Shown here piece by piece: positions 27,962-54,108 of a DNA stretch of 54,108 nt. Source of the stretch: an uncultured Bacilli bacterium. Lineage in GTDB: Bacteria > Bacillota_I > Bacilli_A > RF39 > UBA660. How positions within the stretch are numbered: the first letter of the stretch is position 1; every line of letters starts with the position of its first letter. The stretch is from assembly GCA_947632685.1 (NCBI GenBank), contig CANRQD010000001.1, forward strand, positions 1-54,108. Direction: 5' to 3'. Below the pieces are notes generated by a model that saw nothing but the letters and a program-made list of their open reading frames with translations, was not told the DNA's origin and searched no databases. Made by a program: the position numbers and the translations under genes.

Positions 27962-28018
27962 AAATATATAGAAGCACATATAGTGCTTTTTTTTATAGAA
28001 AAACGAAAGGATGATAAA

Positions 28019-29791
28019 ATGAAGAAAATTAAAAATAAAATATTAAATATAATGTTAATAGTAATTACATTAGTTACATCTATTTCATCAATAGATGTAA
28101 AAGCATATACAACAAATGACACACTTATTTTAGATGAAAATTATAAATTTTGGGTTGCAATATATAATAGAGCAAACACTCATATGGTTGCAACACAGGA
28201 AACAATGATTAGGAGATCCTCTGATAATAGACCAGTTTATTGTATTCAACCTCATATTCAATTTTATGAAGGTCAAGTTACTGGTATAGTTGATAGTAAT
28301 ACAATGGTATCAATATCAGGATTAAGCTCTGAACAATTAGAAAGGATAAAATTAGTATCATATTATGGATATGGATATGGTAATCATACTGCTATAGAGT
28401 GGTATTATGCTACACAATTATTAATATGGCAAACAACAAATCCTGGATATGTTTATGCTATAGCTGATGGAGACCGTAGTTTAACACCATCATCAAGATA
28501 TGATTCATATTATAATGAAATAAATTCATTAGTTAATAGTCATACTACAGCACCAAGTTTTGCTAGGCAAACATTTGAAATGAAGAATAATGAAACTCTA
28601 ACTATTCCAGATACAAATAATGTATTAGGAAAATTCTATGAAGGATCAGAAAATGAATATTATAAAGCAGAAATAAGTGGTAACAATTTAGTTATTACAG
28701 CTAAAAAAGGATATACTGGTACTATTGAATTAAGAGTTAAACGTAATGATAACCCTCCTATGATATATGAGGGAGATAATCAATTATGTATGTCTGCAGG
28801 AGATCCAGTAATGATGATGACAAGATTAAATATTTTTATTACTACAGAATTTAAAGGATATAAAGTTTATGGAGATAAAGAAGATGGATATTATAGACCA
28901 GAAAAAAATGCTGAATTTGAAATTTATGATAATAAAACAAATCAATTAATAACTACTTTAACATCAAATGAGCAAGGATTAATTGAATATAATTTTAGAA
29001 TAGGTGAATATCGAATCCATCAAACTAAAGGTAAAGAAGGATTTAAACTTGTTAAAGATTATATTTTAATTGTAGATGGTAGTAATTTAAAAGAGATAGT
29101 CTATTTTCAAAATAATGCCATAACAGGTAGTTTAGAATTTTCAAAGGAAGATTTATCTACAGGAAAACCACTTCCAAATACATTAGTAGAAATATATAAT
29201 GCTGATACAGATGAATTAGTTTATTCTGGTAGAACAGGAAACGATGGAAAAATTGTAGTTAATAATTTAAAATATGGAAAATACTATATTTTAGAAAAAG
29301 AGGCACCAGAGGGATATACTTTAAATGAAGAAAAAATGTATTTTGAAATATTGGAAGATGGAAAAGTAGTAAAAGCTACAATGAAAGATGAAAAAATAAA
29401 AGGAACATTGGAATTTACAAAAGAGGATTTATCTACAGGTGAGCCACTTCCAAATACATTAGTAGAAATATATAATGCTGATACAGATGAATTAGTATAT
29501 TCTGGTAGAACAGGAAATGATGGAAAAATAGTAATCAAAGATTTGGAATATGGAAAATACTATATTTTAGAGAAAGAAGCACCAGAAGGATATACTTTAA
29601 ATGAAGAAAAAATGTATTTTGAAATATTAGAAGATGGAAAAGTAGTAAAAGCTACAATGAAAGATGAAAAAATAATTGAAGTTCCAGATACAGATAAGTC
29701 AGAAATTAAAACAACTATTATTGGTGGTTTTATATTAATATTAATTGGTGCAGATATAATTTTATATGCAAGAAAAAAAAGAAAAAAGTAA
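28019..29791 (+). CDS. Surface adhesin with thioester domain and tandem Cna-B/SpaA-type repeats
   Basis: A signal peptide is present (start ATG 28019). The thioester-domain signature is Cys in PVYCIQP plus Gln in ATQLLIWQ (TQxxIW). Two 92-aa near-identical repeats follow. The C-terminus is VPDTD, a hydrophobic helix, then a KKRKK tail, which is sorting-signal-like. Confidence 0.8.
   Translation: MKKIKNKILNIMLIVITLVTSISSIDVKAYTTNDTLILDENYKFWVAIYNRANTHMVATQETMIRRSSDNRPVYCIQPHIQFYEGQVTGIVDSNTMVSISGLSSEQLERIKLVSYYGYGYGNHTAIEWYYATQLLIWQTTNPGYVYAIADGDRSLTPSSRYDSYYNEINSLVNSHTTAPSFARQTFEMKNNETLTIPDTNNVLGKFYEGSENEYYKAEISGNNLVITAKKGYTGTIELRVKRNDNPPMIYEGDNQLCMSAGDPVMMMTRLNIFITTEFKGYKVYGDKEDGYYRPEKNAEFEIYDNKTNQLITTLTSNEQGLIEYNFRIGEYRIHQTKGKEGFKLVKDYILIVDGSNLKEIVYFQNNAITGSLEFSKEDLSTGKPLPNTLVEIYNADTDELVYSGRTGNDGKIVVNNLKYGKYYILEKEAPEGYTLNEEKMYFEILEDGKVVKATMKDEKIKGTLEFTKEDLSTGEPLPNTLVEIYNADTDELVYSGRTGNDGKIVIKDLEYGKYYILEKEAPEGYTLNEEKMYFEILEDGKVVKATMKDEKIIEVPDTDKSEIKTTIIGGFILILIGADIILYARKKRKK
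29125..29676 (+). repeat. Two tandem, near-identical 276-bp coding repeats inside the adhesin gene
   Basis: The marker ATTTATCTAC occurs at 29151 and 29427, giving a 276-nt period. Long identical runs include CCACTTCCAAATACATTAGTAGAAATATATAATGCTGATACAGATGAATTAGT. Confidence 0.85.
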
Positions 29792-42188: not shown

Positions 42189-43772
42189 ATGTCTGATATT
42201 AAAACTAAAGATAGAAAACCAAAAAGTATTAAAACAATAAATAGAGCAGGAGAGCTTACTAAAAAAATAAAAGATCCTGTTTCTTATTTAAATAGTAAAG
42301 TAGATGAAACATCGAATAGTAATTCAAACATATCAGATTATGGTAGTGATAAAATTAAAAATTATTCAAATAAAACAAAAGATGTAGCATTATATACAAC
42401 TAATAAGGTAAATAACTATATAAGACAGAAAGTTAAAAATCATATTAAGAAAAAACATATAAATTCAAAAACAATAAAAAATGCCAATAAAACAATTAAA
42501 ACTTCTGAAAAAGTAGTAAAAGAAACTGCTAAAGTAAGTAAACGAATTGTAGAGCAAGGTAGAAAACTAGCTATAGAAGGAGCAAAGAAAACAATACAAG
42601 GTATTAAAGTCATAACTAAAGTTACAGTTTCTGCTATAAAAACAATTATAGCAGGAATGAAATCATTAATAGGTATGTTAGCAGCAGGTGGTACTGCAGC
42701 TGTTATTGCAATTATAATAATTTGTTTTATAGGATTAATTGCCACTTCTATATATGGCATTTTTCTTTCAAGTGAGAAAACATCGAAAGATGGAATTACT
42801 ATGAAAGATGTAGTTGCAGAATGCAATCAAGAGTTTAGTGATAAATTAGAATTAATTCAAAATCAAACACCTCACGAAGCTTATGTTTTAGAAGGTAATA
42901 TGGCATCTTGGAAAGATATATTAACTATATATGCTATAAAACAATCTAATGGAGTTAATGAACAGGAAGTTATTACAATAGATGATAATAAAAAGGCAAT
43001 TATTAAGAAAATATTCTGGGATATGAATGAAATAACATATGAAGTAAAAACAGAAAATGTTGAAAATTCTAGAACCAATACATTAGAACCACCTACTATA
43101 GAAGAAAAAGAAGTTTTACACATATATATTAATAGTAAAACTGCTGATGATATGAAAGTATTATATAATTTTAATCAGGCTCAATTACTACAATATAATG
43201 AATTATCTAATAGTAAATTTGCTAATTTATGGAATGGAGTAATATATGGTTCAATTGATTCTGGAAAATATGCAACTTGGAGACAACGAGATCCAAAATG
43301 GGCTAGTATAAGAATGGGTAATTCTTCTGGAACTATAGGTAGTATTGGTTGTTTAGTAACATCAATTGCAATATTAATAGAAAAATCAGGTGTTAATAAT
43401 AAGATTAATCCATTTAATCCAGGTACTTTTGTTGAAGCTTTAAATAAAAATGGTGGCTTTGATTCAAATGGTAATCTTCAGTATGGAGCAATTACTAAAG
43501 TTGTACCAAGATTTAAATATATTGATAAAGTATACTTAAATAATAAATCAAGAGATGAAAAATTAGCATTAATAAAACAATATTTAGATTCAGGCTATTA
43601 TATTACAGCAGAAGTTCTTGGAGATACTCCAGGAAGTCAACATTGGGTTGCAGTTACTAAAGTTGAAAGTAATAGTATATTTATGATAGACCCTTCATCA
43701 GAACAGACGAATATGTGGAATGCATATAACTATGTTAATACATCACAATTTAATTATTTTATGGCAAGTTAG
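42189..43772 (+). CDS. Membrane-anchored conjugation cell-wall hydrolase (papain-like Cys peptidase C-terminal domain)
   Basis: It has a K-rich N-terminus, a central TM helix (LAAGGTAAVIAIIIICFIGLIATSIYGIF), and a C-terminal GSIGCLVTS...SQHWVAV Cys/His pair reminiscent of CHAP/C39/NlpC-P60. It sits in the usual position after VirB4. Confidence 0.6.
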   Translation: MSDIKTKDRKPKSIKTINRAGELTKKIKDPVSYLNSKVDETSNSNSNISDYGSDKIKNYSNKTKDVALYTTNKVNNYIRQKVKNHIKKKHINSKTIKNANKTIKTSEKVVKETAKVSKRIVEQGRKLAIEGAKKTIQGIKVITKVTVSAIKTIIAGMKSLIGMLAAGGTAAVIAIIIICFIGLIATSIYGIFLSSEKTSKDGITMKDVVAECNQEFSDKLELIQNQTPHEAYVLEGNMASWKDILTIYAIKQSNGVNEQEVITIDDNKKAIIKKIFWDMNEITYEVKTENVENSRTNTLEPPTIEEKEVLHIYINSKTADDMKVLYNFNQAQLLQYNELSNSKFANLWNGVIYGSIDSGKYATWRQRDPKWASIRMGNSSGTIGSIGCLVTSIAILIEKSGVNNKINPFNPGTFVEALNKNGGFDSNGNLQYGAITKVVPRFKYIDKVYLNNKSRDEKLALIKQYLDSGYYITAEVLGDTPGSQHWVAVTKVESNSIFMIDPSSEQTNMWNAYNYVNTSQFNYFMAS

Positions 43773-43855
43773 TCCTATTGTACTAACTTATATTTTTATG
43801 TATAGTAATAGGAAATTATCAAAAATAAACAAATCTTATATTATTTAATTTAATA

Positions 43856-43884
43856 TTGACTTTATTCGACATATTTGTTATATT
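43856..43884 (+). promoter_or_regulatory. Strong sigma-A-type promoter
   Basis: TTGACT (43856-43861), a 17-nt spacer, then an extended -10 TGT-TATATT (43876-43884). Confidence 0.6.
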
Positions 43885-43891
43885 CAAAGTG

Positions 43892-44096
43892 TCAGTTGAG
43901 TAGTATAGAAGTACAACTGATGCAGTAGACATTCGCTGGTATAGGGATGTCTTTTATACTGTTGTAAAAAATAATGTAATATGGTATTATTGAGTTGGTA
44001 ATTGGAAGAGTATTGCATATATAAATTATAATCAAATAGATTATTTCTATTTGATTATAATTTATATATAGAGATATATTTTTCTCTTTTTTTTTG
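43892..44096 (+). ncRNA. Candidate ~200-nt structured non-coding transcript or attenuator leader
   Basis: It lies downstream of the promoter above and contains no ORF with an RBS. Structures are hairpins TCAGTTG...CAACTGA and AGACAT...ATGTCT, a perfect 24-bp stem with a 5-nt loop (44017-44069), and a weak stem followed by a 9-T run (44070-44095). Confidence 0.4.
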
Positions 44097-44158
44097 CTAT
44101 TATATAGCATATTAAAAAAGGGGGACGTAAAGTATGATTTTATCATACTTAAAATTAT

Positions 44159-44620
44159 ATGAATAAAATGAATAATATTAGTAATTTGGAAACAATTGAT
44201 AATATAAAATTAAAACCTGAAACATTTGATAAATACTATAATAAAATTGTGATTATATGCAATGATTTACCTTATAATTTTAGAAAAAAATTAAGATATT
44301 TAAGAGAATGTTCTGGTAAGACAAGAGAAAAGTTAGAAGAAAATTCTCATATTAGTGTTCAAACAATTAAGGAAATCGAAACGAACAATAGTAGAGGATA
44401 TTCGTTAGAAACAATCATTGCTTTATGTATTGGTATGCACTTGCCGCCAGAATTTAGTTTTGAATTATTAAATAGTGCTGGTTTCACTATAGAGAATAAT
44501 AGCACCGAAAAAAATTGTATTTATTGTTTCATTTTAAGAAATATGTATAATTGTGATATTGATGAAATAAATGCTTTTTTATTAGCAAACAATATTCAAC
44601 CAGTATCAATAGATAAGTAA
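44159..44620 (+). CDS. XRE-family helix-turn-helix transcriptional regulator
   Basis: LRYLRECSGKTREKLEENSHISVQTIKEIETN is an HTH_3-type motif. A 10-codon uORF (ATG 44134, strong GGGGGA RBS) overlaps its start. Confidence 0.7.
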   Translation: MNKMNNISNLETIDNIKLKPETFDKYYNKIVIICNDLPYNFRKKLRYLRECSGKTREKLEENSHISVQTIKEIETNNSRGYSLETIIALCIGMHLPPEFSFELLNSAGFTIENNSTEKNCIYCFILRNMYNCDIDEINAFLLANNIQPVSIDK

Positions 44621-44693
44621 ATGGTACATTGGACATACTGTCATTACCTTTTTTTTTATGAGAAATTATTCATAGAAATGGAGGTGTTATATG
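44621..44693 (+). promoter_or_regulatory. 73-bp conserved element, copy A (upstream of lysis cassette)
   Basis: Ungapped 53/73 identity to 46391-46463. Conserved blocks are ATGGTAC, ATGAGAAATT and GAGGTGTTATATG. It ends 72 nt before ATG 44765. Confidence 0.6.
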
Positions 44694-44764
44694 ATATGAA
44701 TATTTCACATTTACTATTATAAATTCAATAATTTTCGCATTTTAGTTTGAGAGAGGGAATTTTT

Positions 44765-45070
44765 ATGAGTGTTAATTATTCATTAATTATATCTATTATT
44801 TGTACATTAATCACTTGTATTATAGCAGTTTTAACATATAAAAATGGTATAAGTAATAAAAATAATGAAGAAATAAAGGATAGAGTAAAAAGAGATACAA
44901 CAATATCAACAAAATTAGATATGGTCATTACTGGAAATACAGAGTTAAAAAATGATATTAAAAATATTGATGATAAGTTTGATTCTATGAGTGAGCGTGT
45001 CGCAAGATGTGAAGAAAATACTAATTATGCACACGAAAGAATTGATAAAATTGAAAACAAATTTAAGTAG
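44765..45070 (+). CDS. Holin-like/lysis accessory protein (N-terminal TM helix plus coiled coil; BhlA/UviB- or XhlA-like architecture)
   Basis: ATG 44765 behind a GAGAGAGGGA RBS (the track ORF starts at TTG 44747). 101 aa with TM helix LIISIICTLITCIIAVL, then a charged coiled coil ending ERIDKIENKFK. The family call rests on architecture and memory only. Confidence 0.5.
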   Translation: MSVNYSLIISIICTLITCIIAVLTYKNGISNKNNEEIKDRVKRDTTISTKLDMVITGNTELKNDIKNIDDKFDSMSERVARCEENTNYAHERIDKIENKFK

Positions 45071-45080
45071 AGGTGATTTT

Positions 45081-45311
45081 ATGAGTTATAAACTATATAA
45101 AAAGAAGTCTTTTTTAAAAAATGATATTGTTCAAAGAATGATAATAACGTTTATTGAAGGATTTTTAACAAGTATAATAGTTAGATTAAATTCTACTGCT
45201 AGTTATGATGTTACATTAATAAAGAGTATATTTTTTGGTGCTATTGCAAGTGGAATTAGTGCAGTATTAAATTTAATTTTAAAGCTTATTAATGGATGGA
45301 AAAATAAATGA
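45081..45311 (+). CDS. Phage-type holin, two TM helices
   Basis: ATG 45081 behind an AGAGGTGA RBS (the track ORF starts at 44991). 76 aa with the pattern VQRMIITFIEGFLTSIIV...LIKSIFFGAIASGISAVLNLILKLI, as in LL-H/Dp-1-type holins. Its stop overlaps the endolysin start (ATGA). Confidence 0.6.
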   Translation: MSYKLYKKKSFLKNDIVQRMIITFIEGFLTSIIVRLNSTASYDVTLIKSIFFGAIASGISAVLNLILKLINGWKNK

Positions 45312-46234
45312 TTAAAGGTCAAAAATCTGTCAGAAATGGTATAGAAGATTTTTTATGCCCTTTTACTGATATGTATATTTCTCAAGGTAGTAATGGAAGT
45401 CTTTCACATAAAGGAACAATGGCAAATGATGTTAGAGGAAGAGTAGCTGGAATCAGGTATGCATATTATGCACCTTGTACTTGTAAATGTTTAAAAACAT
45501 ATGCTTCAACAGGACAGGTTATGTGGCAAAGTATAAATAAAGTTAGATTTGCTAATGGTAGAATTGATTATGCTACTTTTATGACTTGTCACGATGATAC
45601 AATGAATGCTCGTGTTGGACAAATTGTTGCACAAGGTGAACAATTAGGAAATATGGGTACAAAAGGAAATGCAACAGGTGTGCATTGTCATATTGAAATT
45701 TCTCAAAGTTCGGATCCTAGTTGGAAGAAAAATATATATGGAATATACTGCTTTAATAATGAATATGATACCGATAGTTGCTATTTTGTTGATAATACAA
45801 ATATTATTAAAGGAAATGGTGGAAATTGGCGCACTACTACACAAATAAAAATAGAAGAGCAATCAGCACAAAATATAGCTGATCAAATATTATACGTAGG
45901 AAGTAAGGTAAAATTTGATGGAATTTTTAAAGTTGATATCATAAAGCGCAATACTAATTATTTTGGTTGTATACAATTAACAGGTGTTCCATATGATATC
46001 TATTATAAAGAACAAGCAAAAGATTATCATTGGTTACCAGCTGATGATTTTACAGAAGTTGATAAAAATGGAAGTACACTTGGACAAGATGATATTTTTC
46101 AGGGAGGAATATCTTATGTATTAAATAAAAACATATATGAGGTACAGCAAATAGATATAAAAACAAATTCTGCAAAATTAATAATGAATGGTCACGAAGT
46201 ATGGGTATTTAGTTCATTTTTATATGAAATATAA
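45308..46234 (+). CDS. M23-family metallo-endopeptidase endolysin with C-terminal SH3-like wall-binding region, no signal peptide
   Basis: GNMGTKGNATGVHCHIEIS matches the M23 GxxGxSTGPHLHFE (HxH) motif, with an upstream SHKGTMANDV His/Asp. It has no N-terminal hydrophobic segment and is coupled to the holin gene. Confidence 0.65.
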   Translation: MIKGQKSVRNGIEDFLCPFTDMYISQGSNGSLSHKGTMANDVRGRVAGIRYAYYAPCTCKCLKTYASTGQVMWQSINKVRFANGRIDYATFMTCHDDTMNARVGQIVAQGEQLGNMGTKGNATGVHCHIEISQSSDPSWKKNIYGIYCFNNEYDTDSCYFVDNTNIIKGNGGNWRTTTQIKIEEQSAQNIADQILYVGSKVKFDGIFKVDIIKRNTNYFGCIQLTGVPYDIYYKEQAKDYHWLPADDFTEVDKNGSTLGQDDIFQGGISYVLNKNIYEVQQIDIKTNSAKLIMNGHEVWVFSSFLYEI

Positions 46235-46269
46235 TATTATGTAAATTTATAATGAGTAATATGTGAAGA

Positions 46270-46295
46270 AAGACTAAAATTTTAGTCTTTTTTTA
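46270..46295 (+). terminator. Rho-independent terminator after the endolysin gene
   Basis: AGACTAAAA/TTTTAGTCT palindrome followed by a T run. Confidence 0.7.
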
Positions 46296-46301
46296 TTATC
46301 A

Positions 46302-46330
46302 ATGGTACTTCTAATGTACTTTTCCTAATA
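46302..46330 (+). promoter_or_regulatory. Extra partial copy of the ATGGTAC box
   Basis: ATGGTACTTCTAATGTACTTTTCC compared with ATGGTACGTTCTGAATACTTTTAATCC at 46391. It is a direct repeat 89-90 bp upstream of copy B. Confidence 0.45.
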
Positions 46331-46390
46331 AATATATATAACTTTTTTATAATTTTTTGTAATTTTATTATTGAAAATAATACTACATCA

Positions 46391-46463
46391 ATGGTACGTT
46401 CTGAATACTTTTAATCCTTTTTCAAATATGAGAAATTGTATTTAGAAAGTGAGGTGTTATATG
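46391..46463 (+). promoter_or_regulatory. 73-bp conserved element, copy B (upstream of tail-collar/RHS operon)
   Basis: See copy A. It ends 75 nt before ATG 46538. Confidence 0.6.
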
Positions 46464-46537
46464 TGGGCTAATAAATAATAATTTCGAGTAAATAGAATAT
46501 TAAAAAAATAAAAACTATATAGAAAGAAGGGAAAAAT

Positions 46538-47167
46538 ATGAAGGAATATGATTATATAATTGATGCTTTTACAAAAGAAGGCGAAAATACAAATTTAGAA
46601 GTAAATAATTTAACAGCAGGATGTATTACATCTAAAAATAATACATTTGAATTGGATAGTAATGGAAATCTTGTAGTTCAAAGTATAAGTGCTAAGAACC
46701 AAAAAATTGAATCTCAAATTTTGAGAGATTTTGTTTATCCAGTTGGTTCTATCTATATATCAGTTAATGAGACAAATCCAAGTTCATTATTTGGAGGAGA
46801 ATGGGAACAAATCAAAGATAAATTTTTATTATCTTGTAGTGATAATTTCAAGAATGGAGAAATAGGAGGAGAAGCAACTCATACATTAACACAAGAGGAA
46901 ATGCCTGCACATAGTCATAGTGCCAGTACAAATACTACAGGTAATCATAGACACACCTATACAGGTTGGTGGACTACTAATGGTGCAGGTTCTGAAAAAT
47001 ATGCTTGTGTAGCAAGAGGAGATTCTGGAGATTCACCTGAATATGGTACGTTTGCTGCTGCTGGTGATCATAGTCATACAGTAACTGTTAATAATACTGG
47101 TGGAAATAAAGCTCATAATAATATGCCACCATATCTTGCAGTTTATATGTGGAAACGTGTAAGTTAA
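46538..47167 (+). CDS. Phage tail-collar (MdpB-like) domain protein
   Basis: YPVGSIYISVNETNPSSLFGGEWEQI, GGEATHTLTQEEMPAHSH, NMPPYLAVYMWKR, and three HxH motifs (HSH, HRH, HSH). The RHS gene starts 11 nt after its stop. Confidence 0.75.
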   Translation: MKEYDYIIDAFTKEGENTNLEVNNLTAGCITSKNNTFELDSNGNLVVQSISAKNQKIESQILRDFVYPVGSIYISVNETNPSSLFGGEWEQIKDKFLLSCSDNFKNGEIGGEATHTLTQEEMPAHSHSASTNTTGNHRHTYTGWWTTNGAGSEKYACVARGDSGDSPEYGTFAAAGDHSHTVTVNNTGGNKAHNNMPPYLAVYMWKRVS

Positions 47168-47177
47168 GGAGGTTTTT

Positions 47178-50100
47178 ATGAAAGAAATAGAATTAATAGA
47201 AAAAAGAAAACCACGTGAAAAACACTTTTTACAAGAAGACGGAACAATAGTTGCTAAAGTATATAGTGATGATGTTCATTATTTAAAAGATGGAAAATAT
47301 GAAGAGATTGATAATTCATTAATTAATGATAATGGCCTAATATATAATAAATGTAATGATTATAAAGCTGAATTTAAAGATGATTTTAGAGATTCACTAA
47401 TGAAAATTTCTAAGGATAATTATTATATTGATTTCAAAATTAAGCAGCTTAATACTGATAATTTTATAGAAGGAAAAAGAAAATTATCAAAGATGAATAA
47501 TAATATTACATATAATGATATTACAGATAATATATCTATAGAATACCAAACACTATCAAATAAAGTAAAAGAAACTATTATTTTAAGAAATAAACCTTGT
47601 TCTGTATTAACATTTGAATTGAATACTAATTTAAATATAATAAAAAGAAATGAAGAAATAATTGCACAGTCTTCTACTGGTCAAACACTATTTACAATTG
47701 AAAAACCTTATATGATTGACTTTAATAATGTAAGGTGTGATAATGCTTATTATTTGATTGATAGTTTTGAAGGTGGTTATTTATTAAAATTGATTCTTGA
47801 TGATGAATGGATGAATTCTAGTGAAAGAGTATTCCCTATATATATAGATCCGACAATTACAAATGAGAATCAAAATGCAAATTTATATGATACCTATATT
47901 TATCCAGGTGATACAGGTTCAAATAATGGTACTAAAGATATTTTAAAAGTTGGAGCAGAAAAGGTTAATGGTAATTCTAGAATTAATAGAGCATTAATAA
48001 AATTTGATTTACCAGAAATTGGTACAGGAAGTGAAATAATTTATGCTGATTTAACTTTGATTCCTTACATTTCTACAAGTAATAATAAAAATCCAAAAAC
48101 TTACTATATTACAGTTCATCGTATTACACAAGATTGGGATGAATCAACTGCAGATTGGAATCAAATGAACGATAAATATGATAAAAGAGTTGAAGCAATC
48201 ACAGATTTTGAAAGAAGTTATGTTGAAGGTTCATCTATTGTATATAGAATACTTGGTTTTGGTATTACTGAGTTAGTAAAAAGATGGTATAAAGATACTA
48301 AAAATTATGGTATAATGCTTAAATCTACAAAAGAAAATTATATTGATGACGATTTTCCTGCATTTTATTCAAAAAATAATACTGTTGCAGGTAATAGCAA
48401 TCCTAAACCAATTTTTTCAGTAACATATAGAAACCAAAATGGTTTGGAAGATTATTTAAATTATAACTCACAGAATTTTGAAATAGGTTCAACATATGTT
48501 AATACATATAATGGTAATTTAGTAGGAGTATTTAATATAGGTAATACAGTATGTAGTCAATTACCTGCAGAAGTGTCTTTAATATATAATACAAATGATG
48601 TTATACTAAAAAAGTCAACTTTTTTTGGTGAAGGTTTTAAATTAAATTTAGAACAAACTATTAAACAAACTAATATTAATAATATAGATTATTTAGAATA
48701 TGAAGATGAGGATGGTACTATACATTATTTTTATAAAAAAAGTTATCAATATCCATGGCAAGATATACCTGATAATTTATATTGTGATGAAGATGGATTA
48801 GGTCTAGAAATTGAAATACAAGATAACCAATATATAATGACTGATAAATCACATAATCAAAAAATATTTTCAAAAATTGGAAATGAATATCATTTAACTA
48901 AAATTTGTGACAATATTAATAATGAAATTAATATACAATTAGATTCTAATAATAGAATAATTAAAGTAATAGATTCTAATAATAAAGAAATATCATTAGT
49001 GTATAATGATTCTACTATAATTATAGAAAGTCCTAGTGAAAGTATAGTATTGGATATTTTTGAAAATTCAATAAATCAAATACAAACTTTTAAAGGCAAT
49101 ATGATGTTTAAATACAATAATAAATTAATTTCTTCTATCGTTGATATTAATGGATTAAAAATGGAATATGAGTATTACGAAAATAGTCCATATAAAATAA
49201 AGAAAGTAATTCAATACGGTCTAAATAATACTTTAGGAAGATATAATATATTTGAATATGGTAATGGAGCAACAACAATTGTTGATAATAATGATAGAAA
49301 GCAAACTCTACTATTTAACGAAAGTGGAAATTTACTTTCTATAAATACATTAGGTGATGATAATGATATTAGTAAAGCTTACTCATTAACTAATGAGTAT
49401 GGTATGGGATATAATGGAATGGACCAAAATAAAATTATTTCAAACACTATTCCTATGAAATATGTAAAAAATTACTTAAAAAATACAAGTTTTGAAAATG
49501 ATGAAGATTATTTTGAATATGATGGAAATGACCCAAATAATTTAGTAAAATCTTTTTCTGAAGAATCAACAAATTTAGGAAATCGTTCATTAAAAGTTTC
49601 TACAACAGATATTAATCAATCAGTATATCAGTTAATATCAGTTCCAAAAGGAAATTACTATACTTTTAGTTGTTATTTAAAAAATGATATTCCTGTTATA
49701 ATTTCATTAGGTTATACAAAAGATGATGGAACAAATGTATATGAAAGTCAAATAGCAGATGTTTCTGAAGAGTTTGGAAGAAATGATGTTACAATTTATT
49801 ATGATGAAAATGCTACAACAGATTTAAAAATAAAATTAGAACTTTCATTAGCAGGTGTTGCTTATATTGATGACATTCAATTGGAGGAAGGTAAAGTAGC
49901 TAACTCTTATAATATAATAGAAAATTCTGACTTTTCTGATGGCTTTAAGGATTGGGAATTTAAAGTAGTTAATATTGATGATTCTACTGAAGTATCAGAT
50001 ATATCTAAATTTTTTGAAATTATAAAATTAAATAATAGTCAAAATACTGCATTAAAAATAAATATGGATCCTAATTATACTACAAGATTTGGTAAAGAAT

Positions 50101-53100
50101 ATCCAATTAAAGGTAAAGAAAATGAACTTTTTACATTATCATTCTGGTATAAAAATGAAGGAGTGGAACCTTGCTTACCTCATGCAGGCAACACTATGAG
50201 TTTATATTTTTATCCAACTGACGGATGTATTCCAGAACTTCAATTAAATGCTGATTCTGATAAGTGGCAGTTTTTCTCATATAGAGGTAGAGCGCTTGCA
50301 GATTTCACATCTATTTACCTAGATTTTTTTCAATACATTAATGCTAATACTTTTTATATAACTAATATATCATTCTATAAAAATGTAACAAGTGGTGAGT
50401 ATGAATATGATAAAGATGGAAATCTTGTATCTATAAAAAGTGAGTCTGATATTGAAAGTGTATTTAAATTTGATGATAAAAATCAATTACTTTCTGCAAC
50501 TACTCCGATTGGAAGAAAATTTAGATTTGAATATGATAACGAAATTTCTACTCGATTATTAAATGCTTTATCTTATGATGGAATATCTAATACAATAGAC
50601 TATGATGAAAAAGGAAATCCAATAAGGACAAATATTTATCGTAGTAAGTATAAGGAAATAGAAAATGGAAAGTATAGAATAAGGTGCAAGGGTACAAAAA
50701 AATTTATAAAAGCAAAATATAGGGAAATAGTAGTCGAAGAAAATGCTTGTAGTAATACTGTTTGGAATATAAAAAAAATAGATGAAGGTTTCAAATTCAT
50801 TCATTCTATAATACCAGATTTTTCATTAGCATATAAAAATAATGTTATTGTTATAACAGATGATGATTCTTCTAACGTATTTACACTTGAACAAAATGAA
50901 AATGGAAGTTATCATATAAAAACATCTACAGAATATTTAAAAGCTGATAATGATGGTATTAGTATATGTCCACTTGAAAAAGATAATCCAGCATTTGAAT
51001 TTTATTTTGAAACTATAATAGATGAGTTTTTTGAAAATGATGCAGAATATGATATAAATAATAATTTTGTTAACAAACTTACTAAATCAGGATTAGATAC
51101 AGTTTCATATGATATTGATCCTTTAACTGGCTTGATAAAATCCATTACTGATAATAATGGAAATACAGTAGTATATAATTATAATGATAAAAAACAATTA
51201 TTATCTATTACAAGAGGTAATAGAACAATTGAATATAGCTACAATGATAATAATCTTTTATCTAAAGTATCACAAAATAATCTTGATTATAAATATACAT
51301 ATGATGATTTTTTTAATGTATTATCAGTTAAAATTGGTAATAATAGTAATAATTATATTAGTAATAATTATGATTATAATACTGGTAATTTAATTAAAAC
51401 AATATTTGGTAATAATCAAGAAATCACATATGAATATGATATATTTGACCGTTTAGTGTCAGTCGATTTTGGTGATGATTTATTTCAATATAATTATGAT
51501 AATAATGGTAATATAGCAAAAATAATTTCTAATGACCATATGCTAAAAAATGAATTTGATATTGCAAATAGATTAACTAACTATATATATGATGATTTTA
51601 AGATAAATTATACTTATGATAATGATAATAATCTTATATATCAAAAATATAAGTTAAATAAAAACAATAATTATATACAAAATACTATTGGTGATAATGA
51701 CTGCATTAGTAAAATATCATTTGATAATAATGAGATAAATTATGAGTATGATAGTTTAAATAGAGTATCTTCAATTTTATTACCTAATAATTGCGTTACA
51801 AAATTTACATATGCTTCAAATGGAAAAAGGACTACTGATTTAATAAAGAGCATAGAAAATAATGGTAATATATTTAACTATAAATATGATGAATTAGAAA
51901 ATTTATCAGAAATACATAATAATAATAGTATAACTAATAAATACTATTATGATGATTTAAATCAGTTAATAAAAGAAGAAAATTATAATTTAAATCAAAG
52001 CATAGAATATCTATATGATGATTCAGGAAATATTTTGTCTAAAACAACTAGAAGTTTAATTGACAATTCTATAATTAAAACAGATTCATATCAATATAAT
52101 GATTTAAGTTGGAGAGATTTGTTAACTCAATATAATGACATTAATATAGCATATGATGAAATTGGTAATCCTATTGCTATTGGTAATGATATTAATCTTA
52201 CTTGGACTTCAGGAAGAAATTTAAAAACTTATTCAAATATTTCAAAGAATTTACATATTGATTATAAATATAATTACGAAGGAATAAGAACTACTAAAAT
52301 TGTTAATGATACTAAAATAGATTATTTTCTTGAAGATAATCAAATTATATATGAAAATAGAGGTAATGATTTGATATATTATTTATATGATTCATCAGAG
52401 TTGCTTGGTTTAAAATATAATAATTGTTATTATTATTATGTCAAAAATATGCAAGATGATATAATTGGAATATTAAATAGTGCAGGTGAGCAGATTGTTT
52501 CATATGAATATGATAGTTGGGGAAAATTGTTGAGTATAAAAGATGAAAATGGTAAAGATATTACTGATAATAATAATATTGGATATATAAATCCTTTTAG
52601 ATATAGAAGCTATTATTATGATACAGAAACGGGATTATATTATCTTAACTCTAGGTATTATAATCCAGAATGGGCAAGATTTATTAGTCCAGATATGCTA
52701 ATATGTTCAAATCAAGATGTATTATCTTTCAATCTATTTACTTATGTTAGTAATAATCCAATAATGTATTCAGATCCAACAGGACAAGGATTTTTATCTA
52801 ATTTTATAAAAAAAGTAAAACAAAAAGTGAAGAAGGCTAAGAAAGCAATAACAAAGTTTGTTAATGACGTAGTAAAGTTTGTTCAAGATACAGTATCTTC
52901 AATATTTAGCTATAATGCTAATTATAAAAAAGTGAATAAAAAGTCAAATTATGGTTTGAGTTCGGTAGGAGTCGAACATGAAAATGCAACTGAATATAAT
53001 GTCCCGGTAATAGGAAAAAGTGACAGTTTTATTAAATATTCATCCACTGCAGTGGAGAAAAAATTAGAATTTAATGCTCCATATACTAATTCAAAGTTTG

Positions 53101-53366
53101 AGTATGGTAGATTTGGATTTAGTGGTTCTGCTGGATTTAAGATCCAAAAAACTACATATAGTGCTATAGGTGGTTTTGATGGAAAAAATTTATATGTAGG
53201 TTTTGAATCTAGTGTTTCAGTCGATGATATCAGTTCCATTAATAATGATTATAAATTTACTGTTAATGCATTACCAGTAGTGGCTATTATTATTATGGCT
53301 GTATTTCACATACCATTTCCAGCTAAAAGTACAGGTGTTGCACGTGCACTTGCCTTTTCACAATAA
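47178..53366 (+). CDS. RHS/YD-repeat polymorphic toxin, 2062 aa, no recognisable signal peptide
   Basis: AAGGAGG RBS. The N-terminus MKEIELIEKRKPREKHF is hydrophilic. Domains in order are a DNRLRE-like domain (about aa 225-400, RALIKFDLPEIGTGSEIIYADLTL), two CBM-like jelly-roll modules (about aa 765-1075), many YD repeats, and a beta-trefoil/ricin-like insert (about aa 1160-1290). The RHS core then ends YYNPEWARFISPD...NNPIMYSDPTGQG (D1866 at nt 52773), followed by a roughly 190-aa C-terminal domain. Confidence 0.9.
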   Translation: MKEIELIEKRKPREKHFLQEDGTIVAKVYSDDVHYLKDGKYEEIDNSLINDNGLIYNKCNDYKAEFKDDFRDSLMKISKDNYYIDFKIKQLNTDNFIEGKRKLSKMNNNITYNDITDNISIEYQTLSNKVKETIILRNKPCSVLTFELNTNLNIIKRNEEIIAQSSTGQTLFTIEKPYMIDFNNVRCDNAYYLIDSFEGGYLLKLILDDEWMNSSERVFPIYIDPTITNENQNANLYDTYIYPGDTGSNNGTKDILKVGAEKVNGNSRINRALIKFDLPEIGTGSEIIYADLTLIPYISTSNNKNPKTYYITVHRITQDWDESTADWNQMNDKYDKRVEAITDFERSYVEGSSIVYRILGFGITELVKRWYKDTKNYGIMLKSTKENYIDDDFPAFYSKNNTVAGNSNPKPIFSVTYRNQNGLEDYLNYNSQNFEIGSTYVNTYNGNLVGVFNIGNTVCSQLPAEVSLIYNTNDVILKKSTFFGEGFKLNLEQTIKQTNINNIDYLEYEDEDGTIHYFYKKSYQYPWQDIPDNLYCDEDGLGLEIEIQDNQYIMTDKSHNQKIFSKIGNEYHLTKICDNINNEINIQLDSNNRIIKVIDSNNKEISLVYNDSTIIIESPSESIVLDIFENSINQIQTFKGNMMFKYNNKLISSIVDINGLKMEYEYYENSPYKIKKVIQYGLNNTLGRYNIFEYGNGATTIVDNNDRKQTLLFNESGNLLSINTLGDDNDISKAYSLTNEYGMGYNGMDQNKIISNTIPMKYVKNYLKNTSFENDEDYFEYDGNDPNNLVKSFSEESTNLGNRSLKVSTTDINQSVYQLISVPKGNYYTFSCYLKNDIPVIISLGYTKDDGTNVYESQIADVSEEFGRNDVTIYYDENATTDLKIKLELSLAGVAYIDDIQLEEGKVANSYNIIENSDFSDGFKDWEFKVVNIDDSTEVSDISKFFEIIKLNNSQNTALKINMDPNYTTRFGKEYPIKGKENELFTLSFWYKNEGVEPCLPHAGNTMSLYFYPTDGCIPELQLNADSDKWQFFSYRGRALADFTSIYLDFFQYINANTFYITNISFYKNVTSGEYEYDKDGNLVSIKSESDIESVFKFDDKNQLLSATTPIGRKFRFEYDNEISTRLLNALSYDGISNTIDYDEKGNPIRTNIYRSKYKEIENGKYRIRCKGTKKFIKAKYREIVVEENACSNTVWNIKKIDEGFKFIHSIIPDFSLAYKNNVIVITDDDSSNVFTLEQNENGSYHIKTSTEYLKADNDGISICPLEKDNPAFEFYFETIIDEFFENDAEYDINNNFVNKLTKSGLDTVSYDIDPLTGLIKSITDNNGNTVVYNYNDKKQLLSITRGNRTIEYSYNDNNLLSKVSQNNLDYKYTYDDFFNVLSVKIGNNSNNYISNNYDYNTGNLIKTIFGNNQEITYEYDIFDRLVSVDFGDDLFQYNYDNNGNIAKIISNDHMLKNEFDIANRLTNYIYDDFKINYTYDNDNNLIYQKYKLNKNNNYIQNTIGDNDCISKISFDNNEINYEYDSLNRVSSILLPNNCVTKFTYASNGKRTTDLIKSIENNGNIFNYKYDELENLSEIHNNNSITNKYYYDDLNQLIKEENYNLNQSIEYLYDDSGNILSKTTRSLIDNSIIKTDSYQYNDLSWRDLLTQYNDINIAYDEIGNPIAIGNDINLTWTSGRNLKTYSNISKNLHIDYKYNYEGIRTTKIVNDTKIDYFLEDNQIIYENRGNDLIYYLYDSSELLGLKYNNCYYYYVKNMQDDIIGILNSAGEQIVSYEYDSWGKLLSIKDENGKDITDNNNIGYINPFRYRSYYYDTETGLYYLNSRYYNPEWARFISPDMLICSNQDVLSFNLFTYVSNNPIMYSDPTGQGFLSNFIKKVKQKVKKAKKAITKFVNDVVKFVQDTVSSIFSYNANYKKVNKKSNYGLSSVGVEHENATEYNVPVIGKSDSFIKYSSTAVEKKLEFNAPYTNSKFEYGRFGFSGSAGFKIQKTTYSAIGGFDGKNLYVGFESSVSVDDISSINNDYKFTVNALPVVAIIIMAVFHIPFPAKSTGVARALAFSQ

Positions 53367-53382
53367 CTTTATTTGTCAAAAA

Positions 53383-53414
53383 AGAGAGAAAAGATTATTA
53401 TTTTTCTCTTTTTT
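53383..53414 (+). terminator. Rho-independent terminator after the RHS gene
   Basis: Stem AGAGAAAA / TTTTCTCT with a 9-nt loop and a T run. Confidence 0.6.
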
Positions 53415-53449
53415 ATATTATAATATTTTTATAAAGGAAGGTGGTAATA

Positions 53450-54108
53450 ATGGTAAAGGAGAAAAAAATATTTTCAAAAACCGTAGAATTAAATATGTCG
53501 GAATATGTAAAAATGTTTAAAGCTATTCCTGATTTTTATTGGTCAGTACTTAAAAAAAGTTGTATAAATTTAATGGTGGTACTTTCTTTAATAGAATTAT
53601 ATTATAAAATGGATTTATTAAATTCTATTATATTTGATAGTGTAACTATATTACTAATTTCTATAATATATAAAATAAAAATAGATTGGTTGGCAAAAAA
53701 AATATATACACAACTACAAAATAAAAATAAAACAAAATATTCTATTATAAATGATTTTTATAAAACTTATTTGATAGTTAAAGATGGTGTTAATCAATCA
53801 AAATATATGTATTCTGATATGGATAAAATAATTGAAACTAATACAAATATATATTTATGTTTTGGTAAATATATATATTTTGTATGTAAAGAAAAATGCA
53901 CTAAAGATAATATTAATTTTATAAGGAATATTAATCCAAATATTTATTACAATAAAGAAGGTAAAAATAATTCTAAAATGTTATCTATAAAACAGCAAAA
54001 TTTTATTAGTAAATTATTATTAGTAATATTTATTGCTACTATTTTTAGTATATATGGTGCACTTATTACAATAGGTCTTTCAGCGCAAAATATTCCAAAT
54101 CATTTAGT
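53450..54108 (+). CDS. Membrane protein with YcxB-like central domain; candidate RHS immunity protein (3' end beyond window; not in ORF track)
   Basis: ATG 53450 behind an AGGAAGGTGG RBS, open to the window end. Sequence begins MVKEKKIFSKTVELNMSEYVKMFKAIPDFYW..., with TM helices LMVVLSLIELYY / VTILLISIIY and LLLVIFIATIFSIYGALITIGL. A TATAAT box lies at about 53418-53423, after the RHS terminator. Confidence 0.6.
   Translation, partial: MVKEKKIFSKTVELNMSEYVKMFKAIPDFYWSVLKKSCINLMVVLSLIELYYKMDLLNSIIFDSVTILLISIIYKIKIDWLAKKIYTQLQNKNKTKYSIINDFYKTYLIVKDGVNQSKYMYSDMDKIIETNTNIYLCFGKYIYFVCKEKCTKDNINFIRNINPNIYYNKEGKNNSKMLSIKQQNFISKLLLVIFIATIFSIYGALITIGLSAQNIPNHL

Follow-up and report, generated by a model that had tools for sequence, protein, structure and literature searches.

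A leaderless RHS toxin beside a phage-type lysis cassette in gut Bacilli: a candidate lysis-released bacteriocin module

How do RHS toxins of 200-300 kDa get out of Gram-positive cells and through the thick wall? This is posed as an explicit open question in work on WapA of Streptococcus suis (PMC12704120), and it is raised again by a locus at the right-hand end of contig CANRQD010000001.1 (assembly GCA_947632685.1) from an uncultured Bacilli bacterium. The window analysed here is one entire contig of 54,108 bp with approximately 25% G+C, in which the major genes all lie on the plus strand. The locus encodes a 2062-aa RHS protein without a leader, paired with a Gp10_C protein of the phage receptor-binding type and preceded by a short lysis cassette and an Xre-type regulator gene. 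Gene content, missing leaders, an upstream element shared by both transcription units and the cross-species linkage of RHS genes with Gp10_C and lysis genes point to lysis-dependent release of a leaderless RHS bacteriocin, guided by a receptor-binding protein, as the best-supported mechanism, and one that is held with moderate confidence. Release of the toxin through the cassette had been proposed in an earlier reading of the same DNA made from its letters alone (the sequence-only reading). The features concerned are the following, with folding free energies (dG) and z-scores for the hairpins and transmembrane (TM) segments from hydropathy.

44159..44620, + strand: Xre-type HTH_3 regulator, 153 aa (PF01381, phrog_4031)
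44621..44700, + strand: upstream element, copy 1 (by alignment to copy 2)
44765..45070, + strand: 1-TM protein, 101 aa, TM residues 6-24 and a coiled-coil tail (hydropathy; phrog_1863)
45081..45311, + strand: 2-TM holin-like protein, 76 aa, TM segments 16-34 and 44-67 (hydropathy)
45308..46234, + strand: M23 endopeptidase (endolysin), 308 aa, leaderless (PF01551, 30.3 bits; phrog_9066 'endolysin')
46263..46296, + strand: intrinsic-terminator-like hairpin and U-run between the units (dG -14.2, z -4.8)
46389..46468, + strand: upstream element, copy 2 (by alignment to copy 1)
46538..47167, + strand: Gp10_C protein of phage receptor-binding or tail-fibre head type, 209 aa (PF21939, 1.3e-23)
47178..53366, + strand: polymorphic RHS toxin, 2062 aa, leaderless (TIGR01643, TIGR03696, NF041261)
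53378..53414, + strand: hairpin and U-run 3' of the RHS gene (dG -11.4, z -2.4)
53450..54108, + strand: truncated membrane open reading frame (ORF), at least 219 aa with at least 2 TM segments (hydropathy; contig end)

Gene content and regulatory sequences of the module

The RHS protein consists of an all-beta N-domain (aa 1-235), a DNRLRE/CBM96-like part (aa 237-409), a shell of YD repeats (TIGR01643), an RHS core of the kind that bears the DPxG autocleavage region (TIGR03696, aa 1778-1870) and a variable C-terminal toxin (approximately aa 1875-2062), in which one segment, 2027-2045, is hydrophobic. The protein matches solved Rhs cocoons, and a weak match to YenC2 is limited to the core region. 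Its homologues span approximately 90% of the query, which marks the C-terminus as the variable part, and no toxin family is matched by the C-terminal ~185 residues. Hydropathy over the first 60 aa peaks at -0.14, and neither Pfam, NCBIfam nor a fold search finds a known secretion domain in the N-terminus, in agreement with the earlier description of the protein as lacking a leader and any recognisable secretion motif. LysM or wall-binding domains are likewise absent from the protein by Pfam and NCBIfam. An AlphaFold2 (AF2) model of residues 1-400 is confident (predicted local distance difference test, pLDDT, 82) and all-beta, its DNRLRE part resembles CBM96-type carbohydrate-binding modules in the fold search, and the whole 1-400 fold matches BFVD entry A0A8S5MN12 (E 6.5e-24, TM-score 0.74). 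The latter is an uncharacterised 1379-aa protein from a gut siphovirus contig, and the resemblance lies at its start.

As the window is a whole contig, the last ORF (from 53450) is broken off at the contig end. Homologues of this ORF come after the RHS gene in other loci too, as found with hidden Markov models (HMMs), and it is a candidate for the immunity protein. The hydrophobic segment in the toxin and the multi-TM nature of the ORF hint at a membrane-acting toxin matched by a membrane immunity protein.

The Gp10_C gene precedes the RHS gene by 10 nt, and its product also lacks a hydrophobic leader by hydropathy. It matches many phage tail or receptor-binding PHROGs as well as the antireceptors of Lactobacillus delbrueckii phages. 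The previous label of tail-collar protein therefore holds as to the phage tail and receptor-binding type (PF21939) and fails as to family, with PF07484 Collar not among the matches. Conservation is high over the first 50 aa, and residues 125-185 are hypervariable, a profile that reads as the usual receptor-binding pattern, in which the docking end is constant and the binding face varies.

The lysis cassette (44765-46234) has the composition that the sequence-only reading had given it, with a 1-TM coiled-coil protein, a 2-TM protein and a leaderless M23 enzyme, all three confirmed as ORFs at these positions, and the ATGA overlap that couples the 2-TM gene to the M23 gene can be read directly at 45308. 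With this overlap and the short gap ahead of RHS, the genes are closely coupled, and they are intact. The 1-TM protein resembles the holin accessory protein XhlA in architecture and position, and it is matched by no holin, BhlA or XhlA model in Pfam or NCBIfam. The 2-TM protein has no family match in Pfam, NCBIfam or the PHROG holin models; its homologues sit right before M23 genes on RHS-free contigs (L104, L119, L201, L202), some of which are IMG/VR viral sequences. Among the families proposed beforehand for the cassette, Peptidase_M23 (PF01551) was thus matched and the holin families and BhlA/XhlA were not. The M23 protein combines a catalytic domain at approximately aa 17-177, in which the metal-binding motifs H-x6-D and HxH are retained, with an extra C-terminal domain at aa 190-308, and hydropathy shows no hydrophobic leader. 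Its closest solved structure is the M23 domain of phi29 gp13 (3csq, E 8e-25).

Both units, the lysis cassette and the Gp10_C-RHS operon, are preceded by a copy of the same element. Copy 1 holds a GGTAC...N...TACTG palindrome-like site, TATGAGAAATT, TAGAAA and GAGGTGTTATATG, and the local alignment of the two copies reaches a score of 37, which 0/200 shuffles attain. An exact motif search places the 13-mer GAGGTGTTATATG in the same role in the window and in its close relative L001 only, and for this reason conservation of the element was judged by comparing both upstream regions within each locus. On this basis the element is kept before both units in eight relatives (L001, L003, L007, L008, L009, L011, L015 and L025), seven of them other than L001, with a cross-locus layout of a palindrome-like (A/G)GTAC-N5-8-GTAC(T) followed by TATGAGAAA(T/G)T, TAGAAA and GAG(G/A)TG. 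The claim that both units carry the same upstream element is thereby upheld and extends to several species. An Rfam scan of 43700-47300 returns only a chance-level miRNA match, so the element belongs to no known RNA family, and a scan for sigma-70 consensus promoters performs no better than shuffles. The element is consistent with an operator and promoter common to both units and recognised by the adjacent Xre-type regulator, through which the lysis genes and the toxin operon would be co-regulated. In both copies (44681-44702 and 46451-46480), GAGGTG is followed 7 nt later by an ATG that opens a tiny ORF, reading Met-Ile-stop in one and Met-Trp-Ala-Asn-Lys-stop in the other, which may be a leader peptide or a mere coincidence.

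The regulator of the window is a short form that clusters with long forms of approximately 570-590 aa in relatives. In the L003 long form (L003:5793-7505), a Peptidase_M78 domain of ImmA/IrrE type is fused to HTH_3. M78 regulators of this type are familiar from the induction switches of integrative and conjugative elements (ICEs) and phages, and the long form points to a comparable switch here, akin to those that induce ICEs and prophages. The long form is also found in L009, L015, L011 and L023. Between the two units, the terminator reported from the sequence alone is recovered as the hairpin and U-run at 46263-46296 (z -4.8). A G+C-based terminator scanner finds none in the region; it overlooks this hairpin because it needs G+C-rich stems and the stem holds only 2 G-C pairs.

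Signal peptides and gene linkage among relatives

The RHS family comprises more than 600 matches of approximately 2050-aa proteins with the conserved N-terminus MKxIELIxKRKxREKHF. An exhaustive search with RHS residues 1-235 extends this to 4300 representative proteins, among which the close relatives start right at the conserved motif. In the more distant homologues, the same 'EKR..KHF' motif comes after a classical Sec signal peptide and a linker of 25-60 aa. As the Sec signal precedes the motif in these homologues, the motif belongs to the mature protein and is no export signal. In a crude tally of the top 150 of the 4300 proteins, 74 are clearly leaderless and 26 have a signal-like segment, the other 50 being mostly leaderless on inspection. 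Near six signal-bearing loci (L222-L227), Pfam and the HMMs find neither Gp10_C, M23 nor holin genes. The family thus offers a natural contrast in which Sec-bearing homologues are solitary and leaderless ones are tied to Gp10_C and to changing lysis genes; the leaderless state coincides with the phage-derived partners. Sec-bearing homologues stand alone in L222-L227 and also in P0484-P0511; in L227, a 473-aa SH3_6-NlpC/P60 hydrolase is encoded upstream of the RHS homologue.

A scan of species-representative genomes yields 80 loci, all in metagenome-assembled genomes (MAGs) of uncultured gut Bacilli or 'Tenericutes' from humans, mice, rabbits, chickens and ruminants. ORFs of the relatives were called and searched with HMMs built from the window proteins. 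Gp10_C lies immediately upstream of RHS in 78/81 non-redundant loci from different species, and the pair forms the core of the system. Lysis linkage was assessed in the 43 fully informative loci, defined by at least 3.5 kb on either side and a full-length RHS gene. Of these 43, 26 have holin and/or endolysin genes within 5 kb on the upstream or the downstream side (25 by the HMMs, plus L029), which is a lower bound given that approximately 5 kb downstream was covered per RHS gene and few enzyme families were modelled. The co-occurrence of holin, M23 and RHS genes that had been put forward as a test of the proposal is therefore positive.

The lysis genes occur in two main arrangements. In the upstream arrangement, found in 13/43 informative loci, the order is regulator, 1-TM, 2-TM, M23, Gp10_C and RHS, and the genes are all intact in at least 13 species-level genomes, with housekeeping flanks and no other phage genes. 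In the downstream arrangement (L037, L041, L045, L047, L028, L084, L067 and L068), a sigma70_r4-like gene is followed by Gp10_C, RHS, the immunity gene, a holin and an endolysin; the holin often belongs to PF05105 (the TcdE family), and the endolysins are diverged M23 enzymes, a GH25-LysM muramidase (L067) or an Amidase_2 (L068). A further variant, L029, has a holin_5-like protein and an SH3_3-bearing protein upstream. Across the loci, non-orthologous replacement has thus affected both the holin (the window's type, PF05105, holin_5-like) and the endolysin (M23, GH25-LysM, Amidase_2, SH3_3-bearing). A conserved protein of approximately 123-125 aa lies between Gp10_C and RHS in 20 loci of the sigma type (for example L032:9613-9984). 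It has no family match, is absent from the window and could be an adaptor or chaperone.

Phage origin, proposed mechanism and its alternatives

The M23 family comprises more than 1100 proteins, most of them not encoded beside RHS. Endolysins of real phages share 60-70% identity with the window enzyme, and in L090, a real phage, tape-measure and tail genes are followed by small proteins and an M23 enzyme that is 66% identical to that of the window. As these M23 relatives are the endolysins of real phages, the cassette is phage-derived. Among the upstream-type M23 proteins linked to RHS, 19/21 have another RHS-linked protein as their nearest neighbour, and median identity is 71% among themselves and 62% to phage copies. 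Downstream-type M23 copies are only approximately 40% identical, and M23 falls into at least three separate groups by locus type, a pattern that indicates several independent recruitments.

In a distant RHS branch (L076, L207, L208, L216 and L218), the module stands behind a phage-tail gene cluster. The cluster (L216:7832-19944, L218:7932-18022, L076:3398-15358) starts with a major-tail-like protein (146 aa), a tape-measure-like protein and a 650-aa tail protein ending in Gp10_C, continues with two TM proteins, M23, a small Gp10_C and RHS, and is flanked upstream by host genes (LysR, radical-SAM, NUDIX). No head genes are found in these clusters. Such a cluster may be an F-type tailocin with an RHS toxin, and its tail-only, tailocin-like content suggests where the module came from. 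The sequence-only reading had named a cassette flanked by full prophage genes in relatives as an observation that would count against it; this is found in part, as M23 enzymes in real phages and as the branch with tail genes.

In the proposed mechanism, the Xre-type regulator would control two promoters that bear the same palindromic operator-like element. The first would drive the XhlA-like protein, the holin and the M23 endolysin, and the second a trimeric Gp10_C, a 235-kDa RHS cocoon around the polymorphic C-terminal toxin, and the membrane immunity protein. As Gp10_C and RHS carry no export signal, both would pile up in the cytoplasm until holin and endolysin breach membrane and wall in a fraction of the producers and set them free. 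After release, binding to the target surface would fall to the Gp10_C head and to the carbohydrate-binding modules of the RHS N-terminal half, and the immunity protein would shield kin. So read, the module is probably a self-contained system of the bacteriocin type assembled from phage parts. A wider claim is more tentative and stands at somewhat under even chances. By this claim, such loci would represent an undescribed and widespread form of toxin export in Gram-positive gut bacteria, the equivalent there of type 10 secretion and tailocin release, in which leaderless RHS cocoons are guided by a phage receptor-binding protein and rely on dedicated, interchangeable holin-endolysin cassettes. 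The system would descend from the late region of a phage tail or tailocin, an RHS toxin having taken the place of the tail and lost the Sec signal that the homologous WapA-like toxins retain.

Several observations weigh against lysis-dependent release. No curated holin family takes in the two small TM proteins, Gp10_C gives a poor AF2 model as a monomer (pLDDT 58), and the binding of Gp10_C to RHS is presumed. The hosts are uncultured MAG lineages. Lysis genes are missing within 5 kb in approximately 40% of the informative loci, and the upstream neighbours there are mostly ordinary housekeeping genes by pooled Pfam annotation, so the cassette would be either dispensable in cis or located farther off. 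The 60-70% identity of M23 to phage endolysins also means that the RHS-lysis linkage could stem partly from common phage ancestry.

One alternative is that the locus is a decayed prophage or tailocin remnant, in which the lysis and Gp10_C genes are leftovers and RHS is a moron gene with no role for the cassette in export. The phage endolysins beside tape-measure and tail genes in L090, the lack of an RHS gene at most M23 loci, the distant branch in which tail genes, holins and M23 stand ahead of Gp10_C and RHS, and the RHS loci without nearby lysis genes all speak for such decay. The upstream-type genes are nevertheless intact in at least 13 species-level genomes amid housekeeping flanks, the RHS-linked M23 proteins form a coherent group (19/21), and the regulatory element is conserved ahead of both units; moreover, decay does not predict that differing families of lysis genes recur at differing positions. 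A remnant without function is accordingly considered unlikely. Compatible with lysis-dependent release, and as an explanation in its own right somewhat less probable again, is the idea that the M23 enzyme and the other linked endolysins open the wall of the competitor for the RHS toxin. Endolysins of Gram-positive phages can lyse cells from outside, phi29 gp13 as the closest solved relative is a tail-associated wall-degrading enzyme used for entry, and the extra C-terminal domain of the M23 protein would suit this role. Yet without a signal peptide the enzyme would still require the holin for exit, the ATGA-coupled holin-endolysin pair is the standard layout for lysis from within, and the 60-70% identical relatives occupy the endolysin position in real phages.

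The lowest probability among the three is assigned to a scheme in which RHS is exported or displayed on particles by other means, with Gp10_C as adaptor or chaperone, for example docking the toxin on tail-like particles that are encoded elsewhere in the genome, and the cassette irrelevant. Strong conservation of the first 50 aa of Gp10_C and of the RHS N-domain is what docking surfaces would be expected to show, a variant with a tail-gene cluster exists, and the 400-aa N-terminal fold of RHS matches that of the 1379-aa siphovirus protein. Against these stand the absence of tail, T7SS (type VII secretion system) and other secretion genes around the pair, both in the window and in most loci, an all-beta RHS N-terminus unlike the helical LXG/WXG substrates, and the N-terminal motif that follows a Sec signal in homologues and hence is not an export signal. 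Two specific routes were rejected: export by a type IV secretion system of the adjacent ICE, as most relatives have no conjugation genes nearby, and T7SS export, as the RHS protein has an all-beta N-terminus and no LXG/WXG domain.

Known counterparts and genomic context

Lysis-dependent release has precedents in several systems. Tailocins and colicins are freed by lysis of part of the producers. For the type 10 secretion system (T10SS), release of Tc toxins by a lysis cassette in a subpopulation has been proposed (PMC10847048, PMC10847046). T10SS loci (YenTc of Yersinia entomophaga and ChiWXYZ of Serratia) share with the window a large leaderless cargo, including an RHS cocoon, beside a phage-type peptidoglycan hydrolase and a dedicated holin, for which the window has the 2-TM protein as a candidate. 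They differ in that the host here is Gram-positive and hence needs no spanin, and in that the partner here is a small phage receptor-binding-type protein in place of a TcA translocator, with bacteria as the probable targets. Pfam and NCBIfam detect neither a TcA translocator nor a TcB-type N-terminal region in the window.

In Clostridioides difficile, toxin release depends on TcdE/TcdL (PMC12485765, PMC11344133). The pathogenicity locus (PaLoc) and other large clostridial toxin loci combine, like the window, a leaderless giant toxin with a phage holin/endolysin-type gene and a dedicated regulator. The likeness is closest in the relatives of PaLoc-like layout, in which a sigma70_r4-like gene lies upstream and a PF05105 (TcdE-family) holin and an endolysin follow the toxin. 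In contrast, the holin of the window is not of PF05105, its regulator is Xre-type (HTH_3) rather than a TcdR sigma factor, its toxin is a polymorphic RHS protein with an immunity gene instead of a glucosyltransferase, and its endolysin is full-length where TcdL is a remnant.

Tail-like bacteriocins (F/R-type pyocins, monocins and diffocins) resemble the module in being phage-derived and headless, with a receptor-binding protein, a repressor-type regulator and holin-endolysin genes. Genes for a tail tube, tape measure or baseplate are absent from the window, and the killing agent would be an RHS-encapsulated toxin rather than a membrane-puncturing tail; only the distant L216/L218/L076 branch keeps tail-tube-like, tape-measure-like and tail-fibre genes. 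WapA-type RHS proteins of Bacillus subtilis and S. suis are, like the window protein, Gram-positive RHS/YD toxins that vary at the C-terminus and are followed by an immunity gene; a DNRLRE domain is present in S. suis WapA too (PMC12704120). WapA, however, has a Sec signal peptide and wall-anchoring domains, whereas the window RHS begins directly with the mature N-domain, carries neither LysM nor a wall anchor and has Gp10_C and lysis genes as partners.

A literature search found no description of this gene combination. The principle is known from T10SS Tc toxins, PaLoc, tailocins and colicins, and the combination is new as far as this search shows. If the proposed mechanism is true, interbacterial RHS toxins of Firmicutes would come under the holin/endolysin (T10SS-like) principle as well, and tailocin-like modules could be rebuilt around another killing head. 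The gut Bacilli of humans and animals would also prove to possess an abundant and mobile means of competition, with a receptor-binding component whose hypervariable region might be retargeted.

The module was initially described as cargo of an ICE. By Pfam, housekeeping genes (gyrB, gyrA, dnaX, mfd, metG, tatD and rsmA) occupy 1-24 kb of the window and a conjugative element occupies 24.6-43.8 kb, directly upstream of the module. The element encodes an HTH_36 protein, ParA, ParB, a thioester/SpaA adhesin, a MobA/VirD2 relaxase, DUF3801, a VirD4 coupling protein, a VirB6-like protein, a VirB4-like ATPase and a 527-aa membrane protein. Its far end falls beyond the contig, and with the relaxase, VirD4 and VirB4-like genes immediately upstream, the module is plausibly the distal cargo arm of this ICE. 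Pfam detects no capsid, portal, terminase or tail genes among the 20 largest other ORFs of the window, in line with the initial view that this is no intact prophage, and a near-identity DNA search of 44100-54108 against annotated plasmids and phages gives no match.

Relatives present a different setting. In the closest, L001 (83% identical), the module lies in an island of approximately 17 kb (L001:3872-21000) that splits an ABC-transporter operon between its permease and ATPase genes. Upstream of the L001 module is a 125-bp remnant of the last ICE gene of the window (window 43551-43675), and at the end of the island lie orphan toxin cassettes (Ntox44) and a gene for a large, 523-aa serine recombinase. 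On direct inspection, the flanks of L001 are housekeeping genes save for this downstream recombinase, and the L003 module has housekeeping genes on both sides with ICE and phage genes absent. The ICE location is therefore plausible for the window, where the module adjoins conjugation genes, and does not carry over to relatives that sit amid housekeeping genes or in a small serine-recombinase island; the RHS family overall is not tied to ICEs, and the location found here would be incidental.

Two further observations concern the DNA upstream of the module. At 27983-29791, the ICE encodes a surface adhesin of 602 aa with a thioester domain (TED) and SpaA repeats, and a similar gene is found near the L001 module. 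Between the last ICE gene and the regulator lie 386 bp (43773-44158) without convincing ORFs or an Rfam match, and the stretch from 43846 onward is approximately 85% conserved with L001.

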